From an uncultured Spirochaetaceae bacterium (GTDB taxonomy: Bacteria; Spirochaetota; Spirochaetia; DSM-16054; Sediminispirochaetaceae): a DNA stretch of 64,000 nt. A program made the translations under genes and the position numbers. Below are positions 22,441 to 54,757 of the stretch, piece by piece. The stretch is taken from positions 7,157 to 71,156 of the forward strand of contig CAYFVU010000003.1 in the NCBI GenBank assembly GCA_964346645.1, read 5' to 3'. Each line of letters begins with the position of its first letter. Position 1 is the stretch's first letter. The notes under the pieces were generated by a model. The model was not told the origin of the DNA and did not search any database. It saw nothing but the letters and a program-made list of their open reading frames with translations.

Positions 22441-23457
22441 ATGGCAAAAAAAAATAACAGAAGAGTATCTTCCCGTGACGTTGCACGCCTTGCCGGAGTG
22501 AGTCAGGCAACCGTCTCCCGGGTGTTCACTCCCGGAAAACAGGTCTCCGAAGACAAGCGCAAGCGCGTGCTCGATGCGGCCTATAACCTCAACTACAAGC
22601 CGAGTGTAATCGCCCGGAGCCTCATCCAGAACTCAACAAAAATCATCGGTATCGTTATTCGCAAATTCGAAAACCTATTCTATGTCCGGGCCCTCGACCT
22701 CTTCTCCCGTAAACTGCAGAGTCTCGGTTACAGCGTCATGCTCTTCGATATCGCGGGAGCCCAGGCAGTCGAGGACACCCTTCCCATCGCCCTGCAGTAC
22801 CAGGTAGACGGCGTCATCATCACCTCTGCAACCCTCTCATCTCCCCTCGTGGAGGAGTGCAGCCGCTTCGACACCCCCGTAGTCCTCTTCAACCGGGTAA
22901 ACGAGGGCGAGAATGTCCACTCGGTCTGTACCGACAACTTGAATGCGGGACGCGAGATCGCCGAATACCTCATCGGCAGGGGCCACCGAAGAATATCCTA
23001 CGTCGCCGGCGAGCGGCACAGCTCGACCAACAGGAATAGGGAGCAGGGTTTCACAAATCGACTCTCCGAGGAAGGCATCGAGCTCACCTCGAAAGCCGAG
23101 GGGGACTTCGAATATCCCTCCGGTCTCGAGGCAGCCCGCGAACTGCTCTCAGCCAAAGAGAGACCCACGGCTGTCTTCTGCTCCAGCGACAACATGGCGA
23201 TGGCCCTGCGCGATGTCGCCGAGCTGGAGTTCCGACTCTCCGTCCCGGACGACCTCTCGATCGTAGGCTTCGACGACATTCCGATGGCTTCGTGGCCTCG
23301 CTATGACCTGACCACCTATCACCAATACACCGACAAGCTCGTGGACAACAGCATCAATGTGCTCTTGGAGGCCCTACAAGATCCGCACATGCCGATCGCG
23401 CATCAGTTCCTCCAGGGACGGCTCATCGAGCGGGGTACGGTAAAGGAGATCTCGTGA
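22441..23457 (+). CDS. LacI-family transcriptional regulator
   Basis: N-terminal HTH (SSRDVARLAGVSQATVSRVFT…YKPSVIARSL) and C-terminal sugar-binding domain (SIVGFDDIPMAS). Confidence 0.9.
   Translation: MAKKNNRRVSSRDVARLAGVSQATVSRVFTPGKQVSEDKRKRVLDAAYNLNYKPSVIARSLIQNSTKIIGIVIRKFENLFYVRALDLFSRKLQSLGYSVMLFDIAGAQAVEDTLPIALQYQVDGVIITSATLSSPLVEECSRFDTPVVLFNRVNEGENVHSVCTDNLNAGREIAEYLIGRGHRRISYVAGERHSSTNRNREQGFTNRLSEEGIELTSKAEGDFEYPSGLEAARELLSAKERPTAVFCSSDNMAMALRDVAELEFRLSVPDDLSIVGFDDIPMASWPRYDLTTYHQYTDKLVDNSINVLLEALQDPHMPIAHQFLQGRLIERGTVKEIS
22446..22454 (+). repeat. A9 homopolymer in codons 3-5 of the LacI-family gene
   Basis: ATG GCA AAA AAA AAT. One of only two A9 runs I can find in the window. 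Confidence 0.9.
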
Positions 23458-49155: not shown

Positions 49156-50751
49156 ATGCAACATGAGGACTCTCCCCGGCTGGTCGTTCACAAGCTCGGC
49201 TTTACCTTCCCCTCCTACCCCGGGCTGCCTGCGCAGAGACTCTTCCACGGTCTCGAGCTGAGCATCTCCCCCGGAGAGATGAGAGTCGTACTCGGCCAGC
49301 CGGAATCCGGCAAGACGAGCCTCTCGCGTATACTGACGGGTCTCATTCCGCGCTACAGCGGGGGGGAGTTGGAGGGAGAGATCCGTCTCGACGACACACC
49401 TCTGGAATCGGTTACTCCACCGCAGATAATGGACAGGGTGGGGACTATCTTTCAGGATCCGGACGAGCAGATATTCACCACATCCTGCGAGTCCGAGGCC
49501 GCATTCGCCCTCGAATCTCTCGGCTTCGATCCAGAAGAGATACGCGCACGAGTGGACGAAGCCCTCGCACTCACGGGGCTCTCCTCCTACTCCCGTCGCC
49601 CTCCCTCTTCTCTCTCCGGCGGGGAGAAGAAGAAGCTTCTCTTCGCCGCGCTGTTCGCCCTCGAGCCGCGCCTTTGGATCCTCGACGAACCGCTCGACGA
49701 GGTCGATCGCTACTCCAGCCGCCGCATCCTCTCGGCAGTGGAAGAGGGCGGCTATGGAGTGCTGCTCTTTGCATCGAAACTCCTCGACGTCTTCGACGAA
49801 CACGATATGCGCTATTCGCTGCTCACCGAGGGGCGGATCCTCTCCGAAGAGGAGGTCGGCCGGAAAGGGCTTATCGAAAAGGCGCGTTCGCTCGGCCTCG
49901 CCCATCCCGCCTCGTTTGTTGCCCGCGAGCTTTATCCTTCTCATGATTTTCATCCCGAGACCGAAGGACCTTCCGAGACCGCAGGGCCCACCGAGACCGC
50001 AGACCCCGGAGGTCTTCGGACCTCCGAGGTCGAGATGCCTGCGGCCGAACAGCCCGCCCCTCTGCTCTCCGTGCGTGAGGTCGAGTTCACCTACGGCGAC
50101 AGCAAGAAGGGGGAGGCGGAAGGCAATTCGGATTCGGGCGCAGGCGCAGGCGCAGGCGCAGCCACGAGTGGCGAGCCCGAGGAGTTTTACCTTCGCGTCG
50201 ATGCGCTCGACCTCTATCCCGGCGAAACGGCGGCCCTGGTGGGCCCGAACGGCTGCGGAAAGACCACCCTTGCGAAGCTCCTCTGCGGTCTCCTCACGCC
50301 GAAACGGGGGCACATACGGGGGGCCGCAGATCTACGGCTGGAGACTCAAGTCGCCTACATCTTCCAGAATCCGGACTATCAGATCTTTCTGCCGACGGTG
50401 GAGGAGGAGCTCGCCTACGGACTGAGGGAGCAGGGGCTCGCACCTCGGGACATACACAGGAGGGTGCGGGAAGCCGCCGAGATGTTCCGCCTGCCGCCCC
50501 TCAACGTGCCGCCGACCGTCATGAGCTACGGCGCGCGCAAGCGGCTGCAGGCGGCGGTCTACTACCTCCTCGACAGAAGGGTCTACATCATAGACGAGGC
50601 GGATTCCGGCATTTCTCTCTCCGACTTCTCGGAGATGATAGCCGCACTCCGCCGGGAGGACAGGGCCATCCTCATCATTACCCACAACGACAGGATCGGG
50701 AACCGCTACGCCGACCGGAGCATAACCATGGAGGAGGGGAGGATCGCATGA
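49156..50751 (+). CDS. ECF-transporter energy-coupling ATPase with duplicated ABC domains
   Basis: Two Walker A motifs (GQPESGKTS; GPNGCGKTT), two LSGGE-like signatures (LSGGEKKK; SYGARKR, degenerate), two Walker B motifs (LWILDEP; VYIIDEA). The ATG at 49156 is the first one downstream of the acyltransferase stop. Confidence 0.85.
   Translation: MQHEDSPRLVVHKLGFTFPSYPGLPAQRLFHGLELSISPGEMRVVLGQPESGKTSLSRILTGLIPRYSGGELEGEIRLDDTPLESVTPPQIMDRVGTIFQDPDEQIFTTSCESEAAFALESLGFDPEEIRARVDEALALTGLSSYSRRPPSSLSGGEKKKLLFAALFALEPRLWILDEPLDEVDRYSSRRILSAVEEGGYGVLLFASKLLDVFDEHDMRYSLLTEGRILSEEEVGRKGLIEKARSLGLAHPASFVARELYPSHDFHPETEGPSETAGPTETADPGGLRTSEVEMPAAEQPAPLLSVREVEFTYGDSKKGEAEGNSDSGAGAGAGAATSGEPEEFYLRVDALDLYPGETAALVGPNGCGKTTLAKLLCGLLTPKRGHIRGAADLRLETQVAYIFQNPDYQIFLPTVEEELAYGLREQGLAPRDIHRRVREAAEMFRLPPLNVPPTVMSYGARKRLQAAVYYLLDRRVYIIDEADSGISLSDFSEMIAALRREDRAILIITHNDRIGNRYADRSITMEEGRIA
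49957..50010 (+). repeat. three tandem 18-bp units (GAGACCGNAGGNCCNNCC-like) in the inter-domain linker
   Basis: gagaccgaaggaccttcc / gagaccgcagggcccacc / gagaccgcagaccccgga, encoding ETEGPS-ETAGPT-ETADPG. Confidence 0.9.
50137..50160 (+). repeat. (GGCGCA)x4 microsatellite in the same linker
   Basis: Encodes GAGAGAGA. Confidence 0.9.
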
Positions 50752-51542
50752 TACAGAGCGGCTACCTGCCGAAAGACAGCTTCATGCACCGCCTCGATCC
50801 GCGGGCAAAACTCTTCCTCCTCGTGCTCGTCGCCGTCGCCTTCTTCTTTCCCGTTCCCGTACCGATCTACGCCCTCTATCTCCTGCTCCCCGTCGCCGCA
50901 GTCCTTCTTACACTCGGACTACGGGAGCTCTGGATTCCGGTACGAACGATACTCCCCCTGCTGATCCTCGTTGCCGTTCTGACGCCTCCGTTCCACCGCT
51001 CAGGAGACCTTCTCTTCTCGATAGGAGGAGTCGAGCTGGTGACCAGCGGCGGGCTCGAGGAGACATCTCGTCTCCTGCTGCGCTTTACCGGTATCACAGT
51101 CAGCTTCTTCCTCTTCTTCCGCAGTACCGACATCGAGACCCTCATCCTCACCCTGCGCTGGTACCGTCTCCCCTACTCCTTTGCACTGGTGCTCACTATC
51201 GCCTTTCGCTACATCCCCTACATAGCCTCCCTCTACCGCGCCATCTCCGATGCCCACCGGCTGCGCAGCCCCGTGCACGGCGGAAGGGGAGGAAAAAATG
51301 AGACCTCTTTGTGGAAGGGCGTGAAGAGACGCTTCAGCCGCATCTTCCCCACCCTCGTATCCGTGATGATCCACTCGGTAAAGACCATTCCCTCCCTCTC
51401 GATGACTCTCGAGACCCGAGGGTTCGGAAGAAGCGAGCGGCGCACCGCCCTCCACTCCCTTCCCCCTCTCTCGAGGAGACCGAGAAGCCTGGGCACCGCA
51501 GTCGTTCTGACTCTGCTCCTGCTCCTCCCCCTCTGGCCTTAA
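50748..51542 (+). CDS. ECF transporter transmembrane (T) component, EcfT/CbiQ family
   Basis: Polytopic ORF whose N-terminus (…HRLDPRAKLFLLV…) and ARG-containing coupling helices are typical of CbiQ/EcfT. Its start overlaps the ATPase stop (ATGA). Confidence 0.8.
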   Translation: MIQSGYLPKDSFMHRLDPRAKLFLLVLVAVAFFFPVPVPIYALYLLLPVAAVLLTLGLRELWIPVRTILPLLILVAVLTPPFHRSGDLLFSIGGVELVTSGGLEETSRLLLRFTGITVSFFLFFRSTDIETLILTLRWYRLPYSFALVLTIAFRYIPYIASLYRAISDAHRLRSPVHGGRGGKNETSLWKGVKRRFSRIFPTLVSVMIHSVKTIPSLSMTLETRGFGRSERRTALHSLPPLSRRPRSLGTAVVLTLLLLLPLWP

Positions 51543-51636
51543 ACAGATCTTATTCGGGCTCATGGAAGCACGAGTATGCGAATAGGAAACGGGAACGCCG
51601 TTTGACAGCCGCATTCGAAACGGTGTATGTGTAGAG

Positions 51637-52218
51637 GTGGAGGCACATATGAACTACGAGCAACAGACCGGAGAGAAATCGACACCGGCGGCACTGCGTA
51701 TCGCCACCCTCGCGATACTGATCGCAGTTACCGCCGTGTTTACCTACATGATTCGTATTCCCGTAGCACCTACGCGCGGCTACATCAACTTCGGAGATGT
51801 GGCCATATTCTTTACCGCCCTCACCTTCGGCCCGGCAACCGCCCTCGTGACCGGAGGACTCGGCACCGCCCTCGCCGACATCATCTCGGGCTACGCCCAG
51901 TGGGCGCCGTTCACCTTCTTTGCCCACGGCCTGCAGGGACTCGTCATAGCCCTCGTTGCAGGAAGAAGTTACAGGAGGAGGGCTGAGGCAGAGACATCGA
52001 AGCTGTACCTAATCCCGCTGCTCCTGAGTTTCCTCGCCGGTACCGCCGTGATGGGCGGGATATATTTCGTCACCGGCGGTTTTATGGTAGGATTTCCCGC
52101 AGCGGCGGCGGAAATTCCCGGAAACATCCTGCAGAACGCCGCCGGAGTGGCCGTCGGAGCCCCGCTTGCCGCGGCGGTCAGAAAGGCCTATCCTCCCATA
52201 GACAGATACCGCTGGTGA
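51637..52218 (+). CDS. ECF transporter S (substrate-capture) component, substrate unknown
   Basis: Six-TM small protein with …IRIPVAPTRGYINFGDVAIFF…LADIISGY… typical of ECF S components. An alternative ATG lies at 51649. Confidence 0.65.
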   Translation: MEAHMNYEQQTGEKSTPAALRIATLAILIAVTAVFTYMIRIPVAPTRGYINFGDVAIFFTALTFGPATALVTGGLGTALADIISGYAQWAPFTFFAHGLQGLVIALVAGRSYRRRAEAETSKLYLIPLLLSFLAGTAVMGGIYFVTGGFMVGFPAAAAEIPGNILQNAAGVAVGAPLAAAVRKAYPPIDRYRW

Positions 52219-53504
52219 TGCGAGAAGAGGACAGAAACGGCATGAGCGATTCATCGAGCTCACAGGAGCTCTCCGGCCGCAGCCACGGATACGAGCAGCG
52301 CTACCCCTTTACGGCCATCGTCGGTCAAGAGGCCCTGAGGACGGCTCTCCTGCTGAACGCGGTGGATCCGAGCATCGGAGGGGTGCTGATACGCGGCGAG
52401 AAGGGAACCGGCAAATCCACAGCCGCCAGGGCTCTGGCTGGAGTGCTTCCCCGCATAGAGGCGGTCGAAGATTGCCCCTACCGCTGTCGTCCGGGTGATC
52501 TCAGCACCGAACACGAGGAGTGCCGCCGCCTCTTTCGGGACGGAGGCGACTACTCGACTTACCGCAGCGAGGCTCCGTTCGTCGAACTGCCCCTCAACGC
52601 ATCGGAGGATCGGGTAGCGGGGACGATACACTTCGAGCGCACCATGGCCACCGGCCGCAGGAGCTTCGAACCCGGACTCCTCGCCTCGGCAAACAGAGGG
52701 GTGCTCTACGTCGACGAGGTAAATCTCCTCGAAGACCACCTCGTCGACCTCCTGCTCGACGCCGCGGCGACAGGCCGCAACAGGGTCGAGCGCGAGGGCA
52801 TATCGGAGGTGCATCCCTCGCGCTTTATCCTCATCGGCACGATGAATCCGGAGGAGGGCGAGCTCCGCCCGCAGTTCCTCGACCGTTTCGGGCTCTGCGT
52901 CACCGTCTCGAGCATCACCGATCCCGCCCTCAGACGAGAGATAAGCGCAAAGAGAATCGACTACGAGCGCGATCCGCTTTCATTCCTCGCGACCTACCGG
53001 GATCAGGAGAAGAAGCTCTCGGAGCACATAAGAGGCGCCCGCGAGGCCTTGGGCGAACTCAGCAGCGAAAACGGAAACATAGAGGAGTCGGCATGGCACA
53101 GCGCCGCCGCCCTCGCTGCACGGAGCCGTGTACAGGGCCACAGGGCCGACATCATCTTGGTGAAGGCGGCCCGCGCGTTGACGGCTCTCCTCGAACGGGA
53201 GCGCGTGAGCGATGAAGAGGTCCACTCGGTGGCCCCCTTCGTACTCGCCCACCGGGCCGAGGGCAATCCGGAGGATACCCCGGAGACAATGACCGAACGT
53301 ATCCATAAAATCATAGACGAGGTGCGCAGCGGCGAGAAAGAGGAGGAGTCGAGCGACTCCGAGACCGAGCCCGAGGCCTATGCGCCCACGGGAGAGGCGG
53401 CTGAGGAGGGTTCTCTTCACGACTCGAACATGCAGATCCCGGGAGCCGCCGCCGCAGGCAGCATTCTCTTCGATTTTCTCGATAAAAAAAAAGTGCTGAA
53501 GTAG
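52215..53504 (+). CDS. ChlI/BchI-type AAA+ ATPase (chelatase I-subunit-like) with acidic C-terminal tail
   Basis: YPFTAIVGQEALRTALLLNAVDPSIGGVLIRGEKGTGKSTAARALA (Walker A), VLYVDEVNLLEDHLVD (Walker B), ILIGTMNPEEGELRPQFLDRF. Tail is EKEEESSDSETEPE…. Stops 4 codons after an A9 run. Confidence 0.8.
   Translation: MMREEDRNGMSDSSSSQELSGRSHGYEQRYPFTAIVGQEALRTALLLNAVDPSIGGVLIRGEKGTGKSTAARALAGVLPRIEAVEDCPYRCRPGDLSTEHEECRRLFRDGGDYSTYRSEAPFVELPLNASEDRVAGTIHFERTMATGRRSFEPGLLASANRGVLYVDEVNLLEDHLVDLLLDAAATGRNRVEREGISEVHPSRFILIGTMNPEEGELRPQFLDRFGLCVTVSSITDPALRREISAKRIDYERDPLSFLATYRDQEKKLSEHIRGAREALGELSSENGNIEESAWHSAAALAARSRVQGHRADIILVKAARALTALLERERVSDEEVHSVAPFVLAHRAEGNPEDTPETMTERIHKIIDEVRSGEKEEESSDSETEPEAYAPTGEAAEEGSLHDSNMQIPGAAAAGSILFDFLDKKKVLK
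53484..53492 (+). repeat. A9 homopolymer at the ChlI-like / vWA ORF junction (candidate slippage site)
   Basis: GAT AAA AAA AAA GTG CTG AAG TAG. The vWA reading frame (-1) is open from 53486, inside the run. Confidence 0.9.
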
Positions 53505-53533
53505 AGGACGAGGAGGAAGAGCCGCTCTACGGG

Positions 53534-54409
53534 GTGGAAATCGACCTCGCTTCCCTCGTGCAGCGGACGATCAGCATTCACGGCCGAGGCAAGCCCGCCG
53601 CCGCCGGGTCCGCACACGGAAGACCGATCCGCACCCGCCCCCTGAGCCGGGACGAAAGGCCGACGGATATTGCCCCTGCAGCCACGATGCGAGCCGCCGC
53701 GCTGCGGCTCAGCACGGAACATGGGGGGAGCTCGGAGGTCGCAGAGGCCGGCCGACGACAGAGGCGGAAGGCGGGAGGAAAACCGCGACCCCGGCCCTTT
53801 GAGCGGCAGGATCTGCGCATGCGGGTCAGACGCCCCGAGATCTCCGCCCTCATTCTCTTCGTGCTGGATGTCTCGGACTCCATGGGCGCACAGAGACGCA
53901 TCCGGGATGCCAAGGGAAGTGTCATCGGTCTGTTGAAGATCGCGCACCGGATGCGCTATATGGTGGGGCTGATCACCGTCCAAGGCAGGAGCGCCGCACT
54001 GACGGTCCCGCCGACCTCGAGTGTGCTCGTGGCGCGCAGAAACATGCGCGGGCTCCGGCCGGCAGGCGGTACGCCCCTTTCTTCGGGCCTGAGGCTGGCC
54101 GTGCGCAGCATCCGCAACGAGGAGCTTAAGAGACCGGGCATTCAGCCACTCCTCCTCATCGTCTCCGACGGCGAGGCCACGGTTCCGATCGGCAGGCACG
54201 GCGATCCCCACCTCGAGCTGATCGACATCGCCCGACGTATCCGACGGCGCGAGGAGATCGACACGATATGCGTGGACACCAAGGAGCGCTCGCCCTACGC
54301 ATCGGGAAAAAGCGAGATGCAGAGCCTCTCCGAGGCGCTCGGCGCCGCCTACTATCACCGCAGCTACTTGAAGTCCTCCCGAACCGGAGAAAAGACATCC
54401 ATGACCTGA
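53534..54409 (+). CDS. vWA (MIDAS) domain protein, chelatase D-subunit C-terminal-like; independent start doubtful
   Basis: LFVLDVSDSMG MIDAS motif, …GGTPLSSGL…, LLLIVSDGEAT. The ORF-track start is GTG 53534, with GGAGGA ending 16 nt upstream (poor spacing). The frame is open from 53486. Confidence 0.65.
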   Translation: MEIDLASLVQRTISIHGRGKPAAAGSAHGRPIRTRPLSRDERPTDIAPAATMRAAALRLSTEHGGSSEVAEAGRRQRRKAGGKPRPRPFERQDLRMRVRRPEISALILFVLDVSDSMGAQRRIRDAKGSVIGLLKIAHRMRYMVGLITVQGRSAALTVPPTSSVLVARRNMRGLRPAGGTPLSSGLRLAVRSIRNEELKRPGIQPLLLIVSDGEATVPIGRHGDPHLELIDIARRIRRREEIDTICVDTKERSPYASGKSEMQSLSEALGAAYYHRSYLKSSRTGEKTSMT

Positions 54410-54684
54410 GTCCTGGTTTCCGACCGGGCCGAGTGTACCGCATCGGGTGGGATAACGAGCATGTCCCCGGGTACGAGAGTCCTCGCCTCACCGTTTACGG
54501 TAAGGGTAATGCGCCCCTCGCGCACCATGCTGATCTGCTCGTGAGGATGCGAGTGCTCCGGCAGATCGGTTTCCGGCTCGAATTCCCAGAGAGTGACCGT
54601 CATGCGTTCGCTGTGCAGGAACTTTACCCTGGCTCCGGGTAATTTCTCTTGCCAATCGAGCTCGTCTTCTTTGAACAGCTCCAT
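54364..54684 (-). CDS. small cupin-domain protein
   Basis: …LPEHSHPHEQISMVREGRITLTVNG…GDMLVIPPDAVH cupin motifs. ATG 54684 is preceded by AAAGGAGA. Its 3' end overlaps the vWA ORF by 46 nt (convergent). Confidence 0.6.
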   Translation of the reverse strand: MELFKEDELDWQEKLPGARVKFLHSERMTVTLWEFEPETDLPEHSHPHEQISMVREGRITLTVNGEARTLVPGDMLVIPPDAVHSARSETRTQVMDVFSPVREDFK

Positions 54685-54757
54685 ACCATCTCCTTTCAAG
54701 CATCTGTCTGTGCACAATCGACATCTTAGACTCGAGAATATATACTACAGTACCATA

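Follow-up and report, generated by a model that had tools for sequence, protein, structure and literature searches.

A conserved A9 tract between a ChlI-like ATPase frame and a vWA frame is a probable recoding site of the fs-chlD kind in a spirochaete

Introduction

In the DNA of an uncultured spirochaete, an open reading frame for a ChlI-like AAA+ ATPase ends just past a run of nine A, and a vWA reading frame follows it in the -1 frame. Does this arrangement represent two adjoining genes, a single gene broken by a sequencing error or by phase variation, or one gene that is decoded into two products? A sequence-only reading of the whole 64,000-nt stretch analysed here (the window) had proposed that one locus yields two products, an I-like one when decoding terminates and a D-like one when it slips. 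Every check of this proposal that could be made computationally supports it, and we consider it highly probable that this chelatase-type gene contains a programmed recoding site like those published as fs-chlD.

The recoding class itself is not new, as fs-chlD has already been published for chelatase genes, including one of a spirochaete. Antonov 2020, as cited by Kuznetsov 2022, reportedly deals with Mg/Co-chelatase medium-subunit genes that undergo programmed -1 frameshifting. Atkins et al. 2016 (PMC5009743) review fs-chlD frameshifting, and Kuznetsov 2022 (PMC9227772) lists fs-chlD for Spirochaeta thermophila, a species entered there as lacking the large subunit and both the chlorophyll and the B12 pathway. 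According to Antonov 2013 (PMC3711429), Mg-chelatase cassettes in E. coli reporters gave a frameshift product of 63% with A11, 40% with A9 and 10% with A7.

Organization of the locus

The locus, whose source is an uncultured microbial-mat spirochaete, was laid out in window coordinates as follows.

52215..53504, + strand: ORF1, ChlI/BchI-type AAA+ ATPase with acidic linker (I-like product); 0 frame, 429 aa from GTG 52215
52395..52421, + strand: Walker A, GEKGTGKST, read from the sequence; columns G61-T69 invariant in alignments A1 and A2
52713..52718, + strand: Walker B Asp-Glu (VLYVDEVN), read from the sequence; D167 and E168 invariant in the alignments
53483..53485, + strand: TAA closing the -1 frame and overlapping the A run, read from the sequence
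53484..53492, + strand: A9 slippage tract, predicted site of +1A transcript slippage and/or a -1 ribosomal shift; AAA AAA AAA in the 0 frame
53502..53504, + strand: TAG, 0-frame stop ending the I-like product, read from the sequence
53486..54409, + strand: ORF2, acidic linker and vWA/integrin-I domain, C-terminal part of the predicted D-like fusion; -1 frame, 307 codons
53867..53881, + strand: MIDAS motif DxSxS (DVSDS); D128, S130, D131 and S132 invariant in alignment A3

An ATG of ORF1 at 52218 overlaps the TGA of the upstream gene, and gene callers start ORF1 at ATG 52242 to give a 420-aa protein, of which P0001 is an identical call. We reproduced the coordinates claimed earlier for the A9 tract and for the ORF1 stop four codons past it (GAT AAA AAA AAA GTG CTG AAG TAG). 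The -1 frame, said to be open from 53486 inside the run, was found open over 53486-54409 and closed by the TAA at 53483-53485; this TAA lies directly upstream and so bars entry into the -1 frame from that side. Addition of one A in silico gave a 731-aa protein reading ...FLDKKKSAEVEDEEEEPLYGVEIDL..., in agreement with the fusion of about 730 aa with the order AAA+, acidic linker and vWA that had been predicted. A9 runs are rare, as had also been noted: both strands of the 64 kb carry only two, the second at 22446-22454, where dinucleotide-preserving shuffles expect 0.07, and two runs were reached in 1 of 100 shuffles.

Based on this organization, standard decoding of the A9 transcript would end at TAG 53502 and give a ChlI-like AAA+ ATPase of about 420-429 aa with an acidic tail. 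In part of the expression events, decoding would shift to the -1 frame at A9 and run to 54409, giving a 731-aa protein with AAA+, acidic linker and vWA-MIDAS parts, the architecture of a ChlD/BchD-like medium subunit. The 429- and 731-residue products would have estimated masses of about 47 and about 80 kDa. Two routes could lead to this product: RNA polymerase may add one A to yield an A10 mRNA, or the ribosome may slip -1 on A_AAA_AAA. Both would create the same junction, ...FLDKKK-SAEVEDEEEE....

The two frames together have the architecture of a chelatase medium subunit

ORF1 matched Pfam Mg_chelatase and AAA_lid_2, and it matched the solved ChlI/BchI structures 8osf, 6l8d and 1g8p with E values of 1e-83 to 1e-87. 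Against TIGR02030 (BchI-ChlI) it aligned over model positions 1-335 of 337 with 377.2 bits, below the curated cut-off of 466.95, and its Walker A and B motifs are intact. ORF2 matched Pfam VWA_2 and VWA, as well as the BchD integrin-I domain 2x31_A (E 4.9e-14).

The product with one A more aligned with TIGR02442 ("putative cobaltochelatase") in a single stretch over positions 1-638 of 641, with 601.7 bits; singly, ORF1 covered positions 1-362 and ORF2 positions 406-638. Despite this end-to-end alignment the score stayed below the curated cut-off of 779.45, and the score of 342.2 bits against TIGR02031 (BchD/ChlD medium subunit, equivalog) also stayed below its cut-off of 499.55. The slipped reading shares with the TIGR02442 and BchD/ChlD families intact Walker A/B and MIDAS motifs and the domain order, in which the AAA+ module comes first, the acidic linker second and the integrin-I/vWA domain with its MIDAS last; it differs from them in being spread over two reading frames, in scoring below the curated cut-offs and in lacking CobN/ChlH nearby. 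Single-ORF homologues, in which both parts are fused, are 650-760 aa long and about 44% identical, and cover 94-96% of the query. The MIDAS residues are invariant across these fused homologues too, and the motif PGxAAAGSxxFxFLKKK spans the junction position in them (alignment A1). The predicted fusion is therefore collinear with both the fused homologues and TIGR02442.

The A9 tract is conserved in the spirochaete clade and in distant split loci

The same organism is represented by three short-read assemblies made independently (L094, L095 and L096), which come from two sequencing runs. Over 2.2 kb, 2-4 substitutions separate them from the window, and all had exactly A9, the -1 relationship and the -1 frame closed by TAA. 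Four orthologues from different projects, with ATPases 70-87% identical, likewise had exactly A9 and the -1 relationship. By locus, exactly A9 was read in L001, L004, L005, L006 and L097. A9, the -1 relationship and a -1 frame closed by TAA occurred together in 6/6 distinct spirochaete-clade sequences (the window, L001, L004, L005, L006 and L097); outside the clade set, the same TAA arrangement was found in L007, L023 and L045. Among the orthologues, the 0-frame stop lies 9-42 nt past the run and the -1 frame opens at a TAA inside GATAAAAAAAAAG, and the 0-frame tail differs in both length and sequence (VLK*, ALP*, APRR*, VLN* and VLKKRVKRRSRSTE*). AAA AAA AAA is invariant in the orthologues while flanking third positions vary. 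Given that Lys codons in the local genes are 23 AAA versus 83 AAG, three AAA codons in a row are unexpected. The orthologous loci were neither single ORFs nor separated genes with their own ribosome-binding sites, and A9 and the -1 relationship were kept throughout.

We then examined 37 split loci from Chloroflexota, Thermodesulfobacteriota, Spirochaetota and others, among the matches listed. The run was A9 in 32 of them, a count that overstates the independent observations because many of the Chloroflexota loci are related; the others had A10 (2), A8 (1) or A7 (2). A -1 shift was needed in 36/37 of these listed loci, L070 being the sole +1 locus. In addition, one related locus (L013) carries an A10 in frame inside a fused gene, and another (L083) carries an in-frame run. 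A genome scan returned no close spirochaete representative among the matches listed, the best being 53% identical, and a metagenome scan with the vWA alignment added no orthologues, its matches being distant vWA proteins only, with 32-35% identity along some 110 residues.

These data bear on two readings in which the A9 itself would be accidental or unstable. The first is a plain fused gene with a true A10, in which A9 would be a homopolymer error of sequencing or assembly. It draws on the facts that a full-length homologue is restored by one extra A, that homopolymers are error-prone on some platforms and that L013 has its in-frame A10 in a fused gene. However, A9 was found in three independent assemblies, in four divergent orthologues and in 32/37 distant loci among the matches listed. 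As a recurrent identical error is not credible, we reject the assembly-error reading and regard a true A10 as extremely improbable. The second is phase variation at the DNA level, in which slipped-strand mispairing would switch the population from a split A9 state with D off to a fused A10 state with D on, and back. Poly-A is slippery for DNA polymerase as well, according to Antonov 2013 (PMC3711429), and occasional relatives do have A10, A8, A7 or an in-frame run (L013, L083). Yet the repeat length was constant in the three assemblies and the four orthologues, no length variation was seen among close relatives, and A9 was present in every spirochaete-clade sequence; moreover, the supposed OFF state is the consensus in 32/37 lineages among the matches listed, and the product would be a cytoplasmic ATPase complex rather than a surface antigen. 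We thus consider phase variation very unlikely. Both of these alternatives had been raised in the sequence-only reading, and we reject both.

The -1 frame evolves as coding sequence from the A run onward

Recoding at the tract competes with an arrangement of two ordinary adjoining genes, in which A9 would do no more than encode Lys-Lys-Lys and the vWA protein would arise separately, through internal initiation or through termination-reinitiation, with GTG 53534 as one candidate start. In every relative the gene callers report a pair of genes, GTG 53534 sits 30 nt past the 0-frame stop, and Antonov 2013 (PMC3711429) saw downstream-ORF initiation beside frameshifting in some reporters, not specifically the chelatase cassettes. 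On the other hand, no Shine-Dalgarno sequence lies at working distance from GTG 53534, the closest GGAGG ending 17 nt upstream, and orthologues have GTA, GTC or ATC at this codon; independent initiation at this GTG had been called weak from the sequence. No start codon in the -1 frame was conserved among five loci, where the first candidates stand at codons 17, 25, 52, 71 and 68. The called vWA starts lie 53-134 nt past the stop of the upstream gene in L001/L004, and they shorten the -1 ORF by about 67 codons in L006 and by about 127 in L005. We identified no promoter or terminator site above chance between ORF1 and ORF2.

Upstream of the candidate starts, the pattern of change is that of coding sequence, and it is confined to the -1 frame. 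Among differing codon pairs in this stretch, 53/127 were synonymous in the -1 frame, as compared with 5/128 and 14/126 in the other frames, and the constraint starts right at the A run. This constraint, the invariance of AAA AAA AAA against the 23:83 AAA:AAG usage and the -1 relationship in 36/37 split loci among the matches listed all speak against two ordinary genes, which we regard as improbable. A recoded single gene also predicts a tryptic peptide, SAEVEDEEEEPLYGVEIDLASLVQR, which sits upstream of every candidate start codon. Annotation is affected as well: the vWA ORF here and in relatives is routinely called from arbitrary starts that truncate it to 164-291 aa, and its name and that of the ATPase ORF suggest no relation; the remedy is one recoded gene with two products.

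Polymerase and ribosome as candidate sites of slippage

What the sequences show is the anatomy of the locus, its conservation, the coding constraint and the collinearity with fused proteins; slippage in vivo at the A9 tract, its efficiency, the step at which it would occur (polymerase or ribosome) and the cellular role of its products are offered here as predictions. Among the matches listed, A9 runs were distributed over codon phases 1, 2 and 3 as 9, 11 and 11 (L070, in phase 2, left out). No conserved RNA structure was found downstream of the run: the RNAalifold consensus was -3.69 kcal/mol with an unfavourable covariation term of +0.94, and the window fold downstream of the run was not unusually stable (z = -1.16). 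Inspection by eye of the 30 nt upstream of the run revealed no Shine-Dalgarno-like stimulator. Retention of length 9 in all three codon phases, together with the absence of a conserved stimulatory structure, favours RNA-polymerase slippage. According to PMC5009743, bacterial RNA polymerase, with an RNA-DNA hybrid 9-10 bp long, slips efficiently on 9-nt A/T runs, and such a run serves for slippage in Thermus dnaX; a homopolymer of at least about nine A/T at the frame junction is what the present locus shares with programmed transcriptional realignment of this type. Ribosomal -1 frameshifting is also fully compatible with the data, since an in-phase A_AAA_AAA heptamer exists in any A9 run whatever its phase, and since both A7 loci fit X_XXY_YYZ exactly (phase 3), with the A8 locus falling in phase 2. 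We infer the apportionment between transcription and translation from this comparison only, and we lean slightly towards RNA polymerase as the larger contributor. A9 in all codon phases without conserved structure offers a testable handle on whether the polymerase or the ribosome slips.

The locus resembles published fs-chlD genes in having a vWA ORF in the -1 frame behind a ChlI-like ORF, in the poly-A slippery site where the two overlap, and in the collinearity of the frameshift product with single-ORF homologues. The published signals usually come with a downstream stimulatory RNA structure, although this is not obligatory, whereas none is conserved here. The event is described as translational in the fs-chlD papers; RNA-polymerase slippage would account at least equally well for an A9 length that is independent of codon phase.

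The analogy to dnaX tau/gamma drawn in the sequence-only reading is apt. In Thermus thermophilus and E. coli, one dnaX gene yields two products which share an N-terminal AAA+ module and enter one complex, and the product ratio is set by homopolymer slippage, on a run of length 9 in Thermus thermophilus as here; E. coli dnaX uses a -1 frameshift on A_AAA_AAG and Thermus thermophilus dnaX transcriptional slippage. Unlike here, the long dnaX product is read in the 0 frame and the short one arises by slippage, while in the present locus the short product would be 0-frame and the long one slipped; a dnaX-like layout may occur in L013 and L083. The protein families are unrelated save for the AAA+ fold. 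By analogy with Mg-chelatase I and D, the I-like and D-like products would probably co-assemble into an I/D-type AAA+ motor. The locus would be a clean and deeply conserved example of two AAA+ complex subunits made from one gene, with their ratio set by slippage.

Genomic neighbourhood and the large chelatase subunit

Upstream of ORF1, Pfam matches identified the following genes.

49159..52218, + strand: ECF transporter genes, with a fused A-A ATPase, a T component (CbiQ family) and an S component (PF07155)

The ends of the ECF genes abut or overlap the adjoining genes, so the ECF transporter genes and the recoded gene probably form one operon. No terminator-like site above chance was found between them. 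Searches of the 64-kb window by tblastn (E <= 1e-5) with the CobN proteins L012, confirmed as PF02514, and L022 detected no CobN/ChlH; cobN adjoins many non-slippery relatives. Since no CobN/ChlH lies within 64 kb, a chelatase function is not established for this locus. A search for a partner gene common to the neighbourhoods of split loci across phyla returned only the two ORFs and their antisense shadows, and the neighbours were lineage-specific. In the literature searched, including the fs-chlD texts consulted, nothing relevant turned up on ECF-transporter linkage with ChlI/vWA genes.

Because of the absent CobN/ChlH partner and the operon with an ECF transporter, the spirochaete motor, an orphan I/D motor with respect to a large chelatase subunit, might have a function other than that of the known tetrapyrrole chelatases, for example metal or cofactor handling at the importer. 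We advance this only tentatively, coupled with the idea that the fs-chlD class is driven mainly by RNA-polymerase slippage, selection acting on a run of exactly nine A, close to the length of one RNA-DNA hybrid, whatever its codon phase, and we regard the combination as rather doubtful. The synteny with the ECF genes was kept in L001/L002, L004, L005, L006 and L094-96.

An A9 run joins a chelatase-type ATPase ORF to a vWA ORF

The features of the putative recoding site are as follows.
52215-53504, + strand: ORF1, the 0-frame ATPase ORF, 429 aa (Pfam Mg_chelatase and AAA_lid_2)
53484-53492, + strand: A9 run, in the context GAT AAA AAA AAA GTG CTG AAG TAG
53502-53504, + strand: stop codon TAG, terminating ORF1
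53483-53485, + strand: TAA closing the -1 frame, overlapping the A9 run
53486-54409, + strand: -1 frame, open beyond this TAA; the downstream ORF (Pfam VWA_2 and VWA)

The A9 run at the junction, the ORF1 stop and the -1 frame open into the vWA ORF are all present as the sequence-only reading had described them. Its assignment of ORF1 to AAA+ chelatase-type modules and of the downstream ORF to vWA proteins agreed with the Pfam matches and with the intact Walker A (GEKGTGKST), Walker B (DE) and MIDAS (DVSDS) motifs, all located at invariant alignment columns. A9 runs are also as rare as claimed, with two in 64 kb against a shuffled expectation of 0.07. The other run (22446-22454, + strand) lies in codons 2-5 (ATG GCA AAA AAA AAC) of ORF 22441-23457, whose 338-aa product appears from its sequence to be a LacI-family regulator. 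A slip at this point would cut the protein short almost immediately, so the run might have a regulatory role or might reflect an A-rich translation-start region. A cupin-domain gene of 117 aa (54364-54717, - strand) shares 46 nt with the 3′ end of the vWA ORF; among the spirochaete-clade orthologous loci, it is kept in L005 and L006 and missing from L001 and L004.

The predicted slipped product resembles a chelatase D subunit

A -1 ribosomal slip on A_AAA_AAA would give a fusion protein of AAA+ module, acidic linker and vWA domain, and RNA polymerase inserting one A would give the same protein. With one A added, the product is 731 aa long. Its closest relatives outside the clade are single ORFs of 650-760 aa (about 44% identity over 94-96% of the query), named magnesium chelatase subunit D or putative cobaltochelatase in their sources. 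The alignment with these fused homologues was continuous across the junction, where PGxAAAGSxxFxFLKKK was found in the best-matching ones, 6 of the 11 aligned. The product matched the NCBIfam putative cobaltochelatase model TIGR02442 in a single stretch (model positions 1-638 of 641), while ORF1 alone covered 1-362 and the vWA ORF alone 406-638. The N-terminal part matched solved ChlI/BchI structures and the C-terminal part the BchD integrin-I domain. Scores fell under the curated cut-offs of TIGR02442, TIGR02030 (BchI-ChlI) and TIGR02031 (BchD-ChlD), indicating a divergent relative rather than an equivalog. This collinearity bears out the claim that slippage would build a D-like fusion, and the sequence comparisons support the proposal that an I-like product arises by termination and a D-like product by slippage.

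The A9 run is conserved in the spirochaete clade

Given that the window is a contig from a microbial-mat metagenome, a sequencing or assembly error might have split a fused gene. We found A9 in all three independent short-read assemblies of the same organism, from two sequencing runs, which show 2-4 substitutions relative to the window across 2.2 kb. Exactly A9 was also found in L001, L004, L005 and L006, from other projects (ATPase 70-87% identical), and in a fifth short contig, L097. An error is therefore unlikely, and the comparison indicates that the A9 run is genuine. In all these loci the vWA ORF lies in the -1 frame, opening at the TAA within GATAAAAAAAAAG (GGT in L005); thus the run and the -1 relationship, which the sequence-only reading had proposed to check in orthologues, are kept in every clade locus compared. 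The 0-frame stop follows 9-42 nt past the run, and the 0-frame tails vary, ending in VLK, ALP, APRR, VLN or VLKKRVKRRSRSTE. AAA AAA AAA is invariant among orthologues, whereas adjacent third positions differ. Local genes use 23 AAA and 83 AAG lysine codons, indicating that AAA AAA AAA is not the default spelling here. DNA-level phase variation at the tract is likewise unlikely.

The -1 frame is probably translated from the A9 run onward

Alternatively, the vWA ORF could be a separate gene expressed by its own initiation. In five loci, the first candidate -1-frame starts lay at codons 17, 25, 52, 71 and 68, with no conserved start codon and no Shine-Dalgarno at a working distance. GTG 53534, at which initiation had been judged weak, likewise has no working Shine-Dalgarno and is replaced by GTA, GTC or ATC in orthologues. 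Conservation also extends to the peptide straight behind the run (KKSAE...EEEPLYGVEIDLASLVQRT). Across an 18-codon block upstream of most candidate starts, 53 of 127 differing codon pairs were synonymous in the -1 frame, compared with 5 of 128 and 14 of 126 in the other frames. This synonymous excess indicates, at the level of sequence, that the -1 frame is translated from the A9 run onward; independent initiation is unlikely. Gene callers gave the vWA ORF 196 or 291 aa on the same sequence (L094/L095 and L096, assemblies of the window organism), and 164, 233 and 240 aa in L005, L006 and L004. These inconsistent, truncated starts (53486-54409 and orthologues) are a systematic annotation artefact of recoding.

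A-run junctions across phyla and the proposed slippage mechanism

Scanning GTDB (Genome Taxonomy Database) at one genome per species gave at least 80 loci. Together with the clade loci, 37 with ATPase and vWA in different frames carried an A run at the junction among the matches listed, from Chloroflexota, Thermodesulfobacteriota, Spirochaetota and others. Among these, the run was A9 in 32, A10 in two, A8 in one and A7 in two, and 36 of the 37 required a -1 shift. The exception, L070 (5070-5078), has an A9 beginning at codon position 2, and its vWA ORF is shifted by +1 with respect to that run; it is probably a long-read assembly, so the run may really be A10 with one base missed, or the site may need loss of one A. 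In L013 (5058-5067, A10) and L083 (5071-5079, A9), the run lies in frame at the equivalent position within fused genes (644 and 676 aa), where each of the other two frames reaches a stop within 4-12 codons. Slippage would there give the short product, the Thermus dnaX arrangement and the reverse of the split loci; these two are either such a reverse layout or assembly errors.

With L070 left out, the first A of the A9 fell at codon positions 1, 2 and 3 in 9, 11 and 11 of the listed loci; length 9 is thus kept whatever the phase. No conserved or unusually stable downstream RNA structure and no upstream Shine-Dalgarno-like element was found. Bacterial RNA polymerase is reported to slip efficiently on 9 A/T, with a hybrid of 9-10 bp, and to give two products from Thermus dnaX (PMC5009743). 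Phase-independent length, the lack of stimulators and published slippage on 9 A/T together favour a large transcriptional contribution. Ribosomal -1 frameshifting is consistent with every A9 holding an in-phase heptamer in any phase, and with short runs being in phase: among the matches listed, both A7 runs are exactly so (X_XXY_YYZ), and the A8 run begins at codon position 2. RNA polymerase may account for slightly over half of the slippage and the ribosome for slightly under half. Transcripts carrying A8 or A11 would again be read into I-like products (ending ...KKKC), so slippage either way would be harmless.

Neighbourhood and relation to published frameshifted chlD genes

Genes of an ECF transporter lie directly upstream in every clade locus long enough to show it.
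49159-52218, + strand: ECF transporter genes (fused A-A ATPase, CbiQ-family T component, PF07155-family S component)
Relatives: L001 3019-6001; L004 55-615; L006 476-1057; L094 1-2977

The S-component gene ends in a TGA that shares nucleotides with the ATG of the ATPase gene, and the S component is weakly similar to folate and riboflavin S components. The arrangement was not found in the Chloroflexota or Thermodesulfobacteriota loci, confining the synteny to the spirochaete clade, and no neighbour is conserved across phyla beside the split loci. CobN/ChlH was not found in the 64-kb window, nor within about 4 kb of any of the 37 split A-run loci among the matches listed; it was found within that distance in at least 20 other scan loci, whose chlI is separate or whose fused gene lacks a long A run. 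If Mg-chelatase is a guide, the two products should assemble into an I/D AAA+ motor, here an orphan without CobN/ChlH in the window and linked to an ECF transporter.

Recoding of this kind is already published. Antonov et al. (2013) described 23 clustered Mg-chelatase genes that carry a -1 frameshift, remarked on their fused homologues, and in E. coli reporters obtained 63% frameshift product with A11, 40% with A9 and 10% with A7 (PMC3711429); the phenomenon was reviewed by Atkins et al. (2016; PMC5009743). Kuznetsov et al. (2022; PMC9227772), citing Antonov (2020), give 169 such fs-chlD genes across phyla, and list the function of the one in Spirochaeta thermophila, described as without the large subunit and chlorophyll or B12 pathways, as unknown. 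The present locus is a further fs-chlD case, from an uncultured spirochaete.
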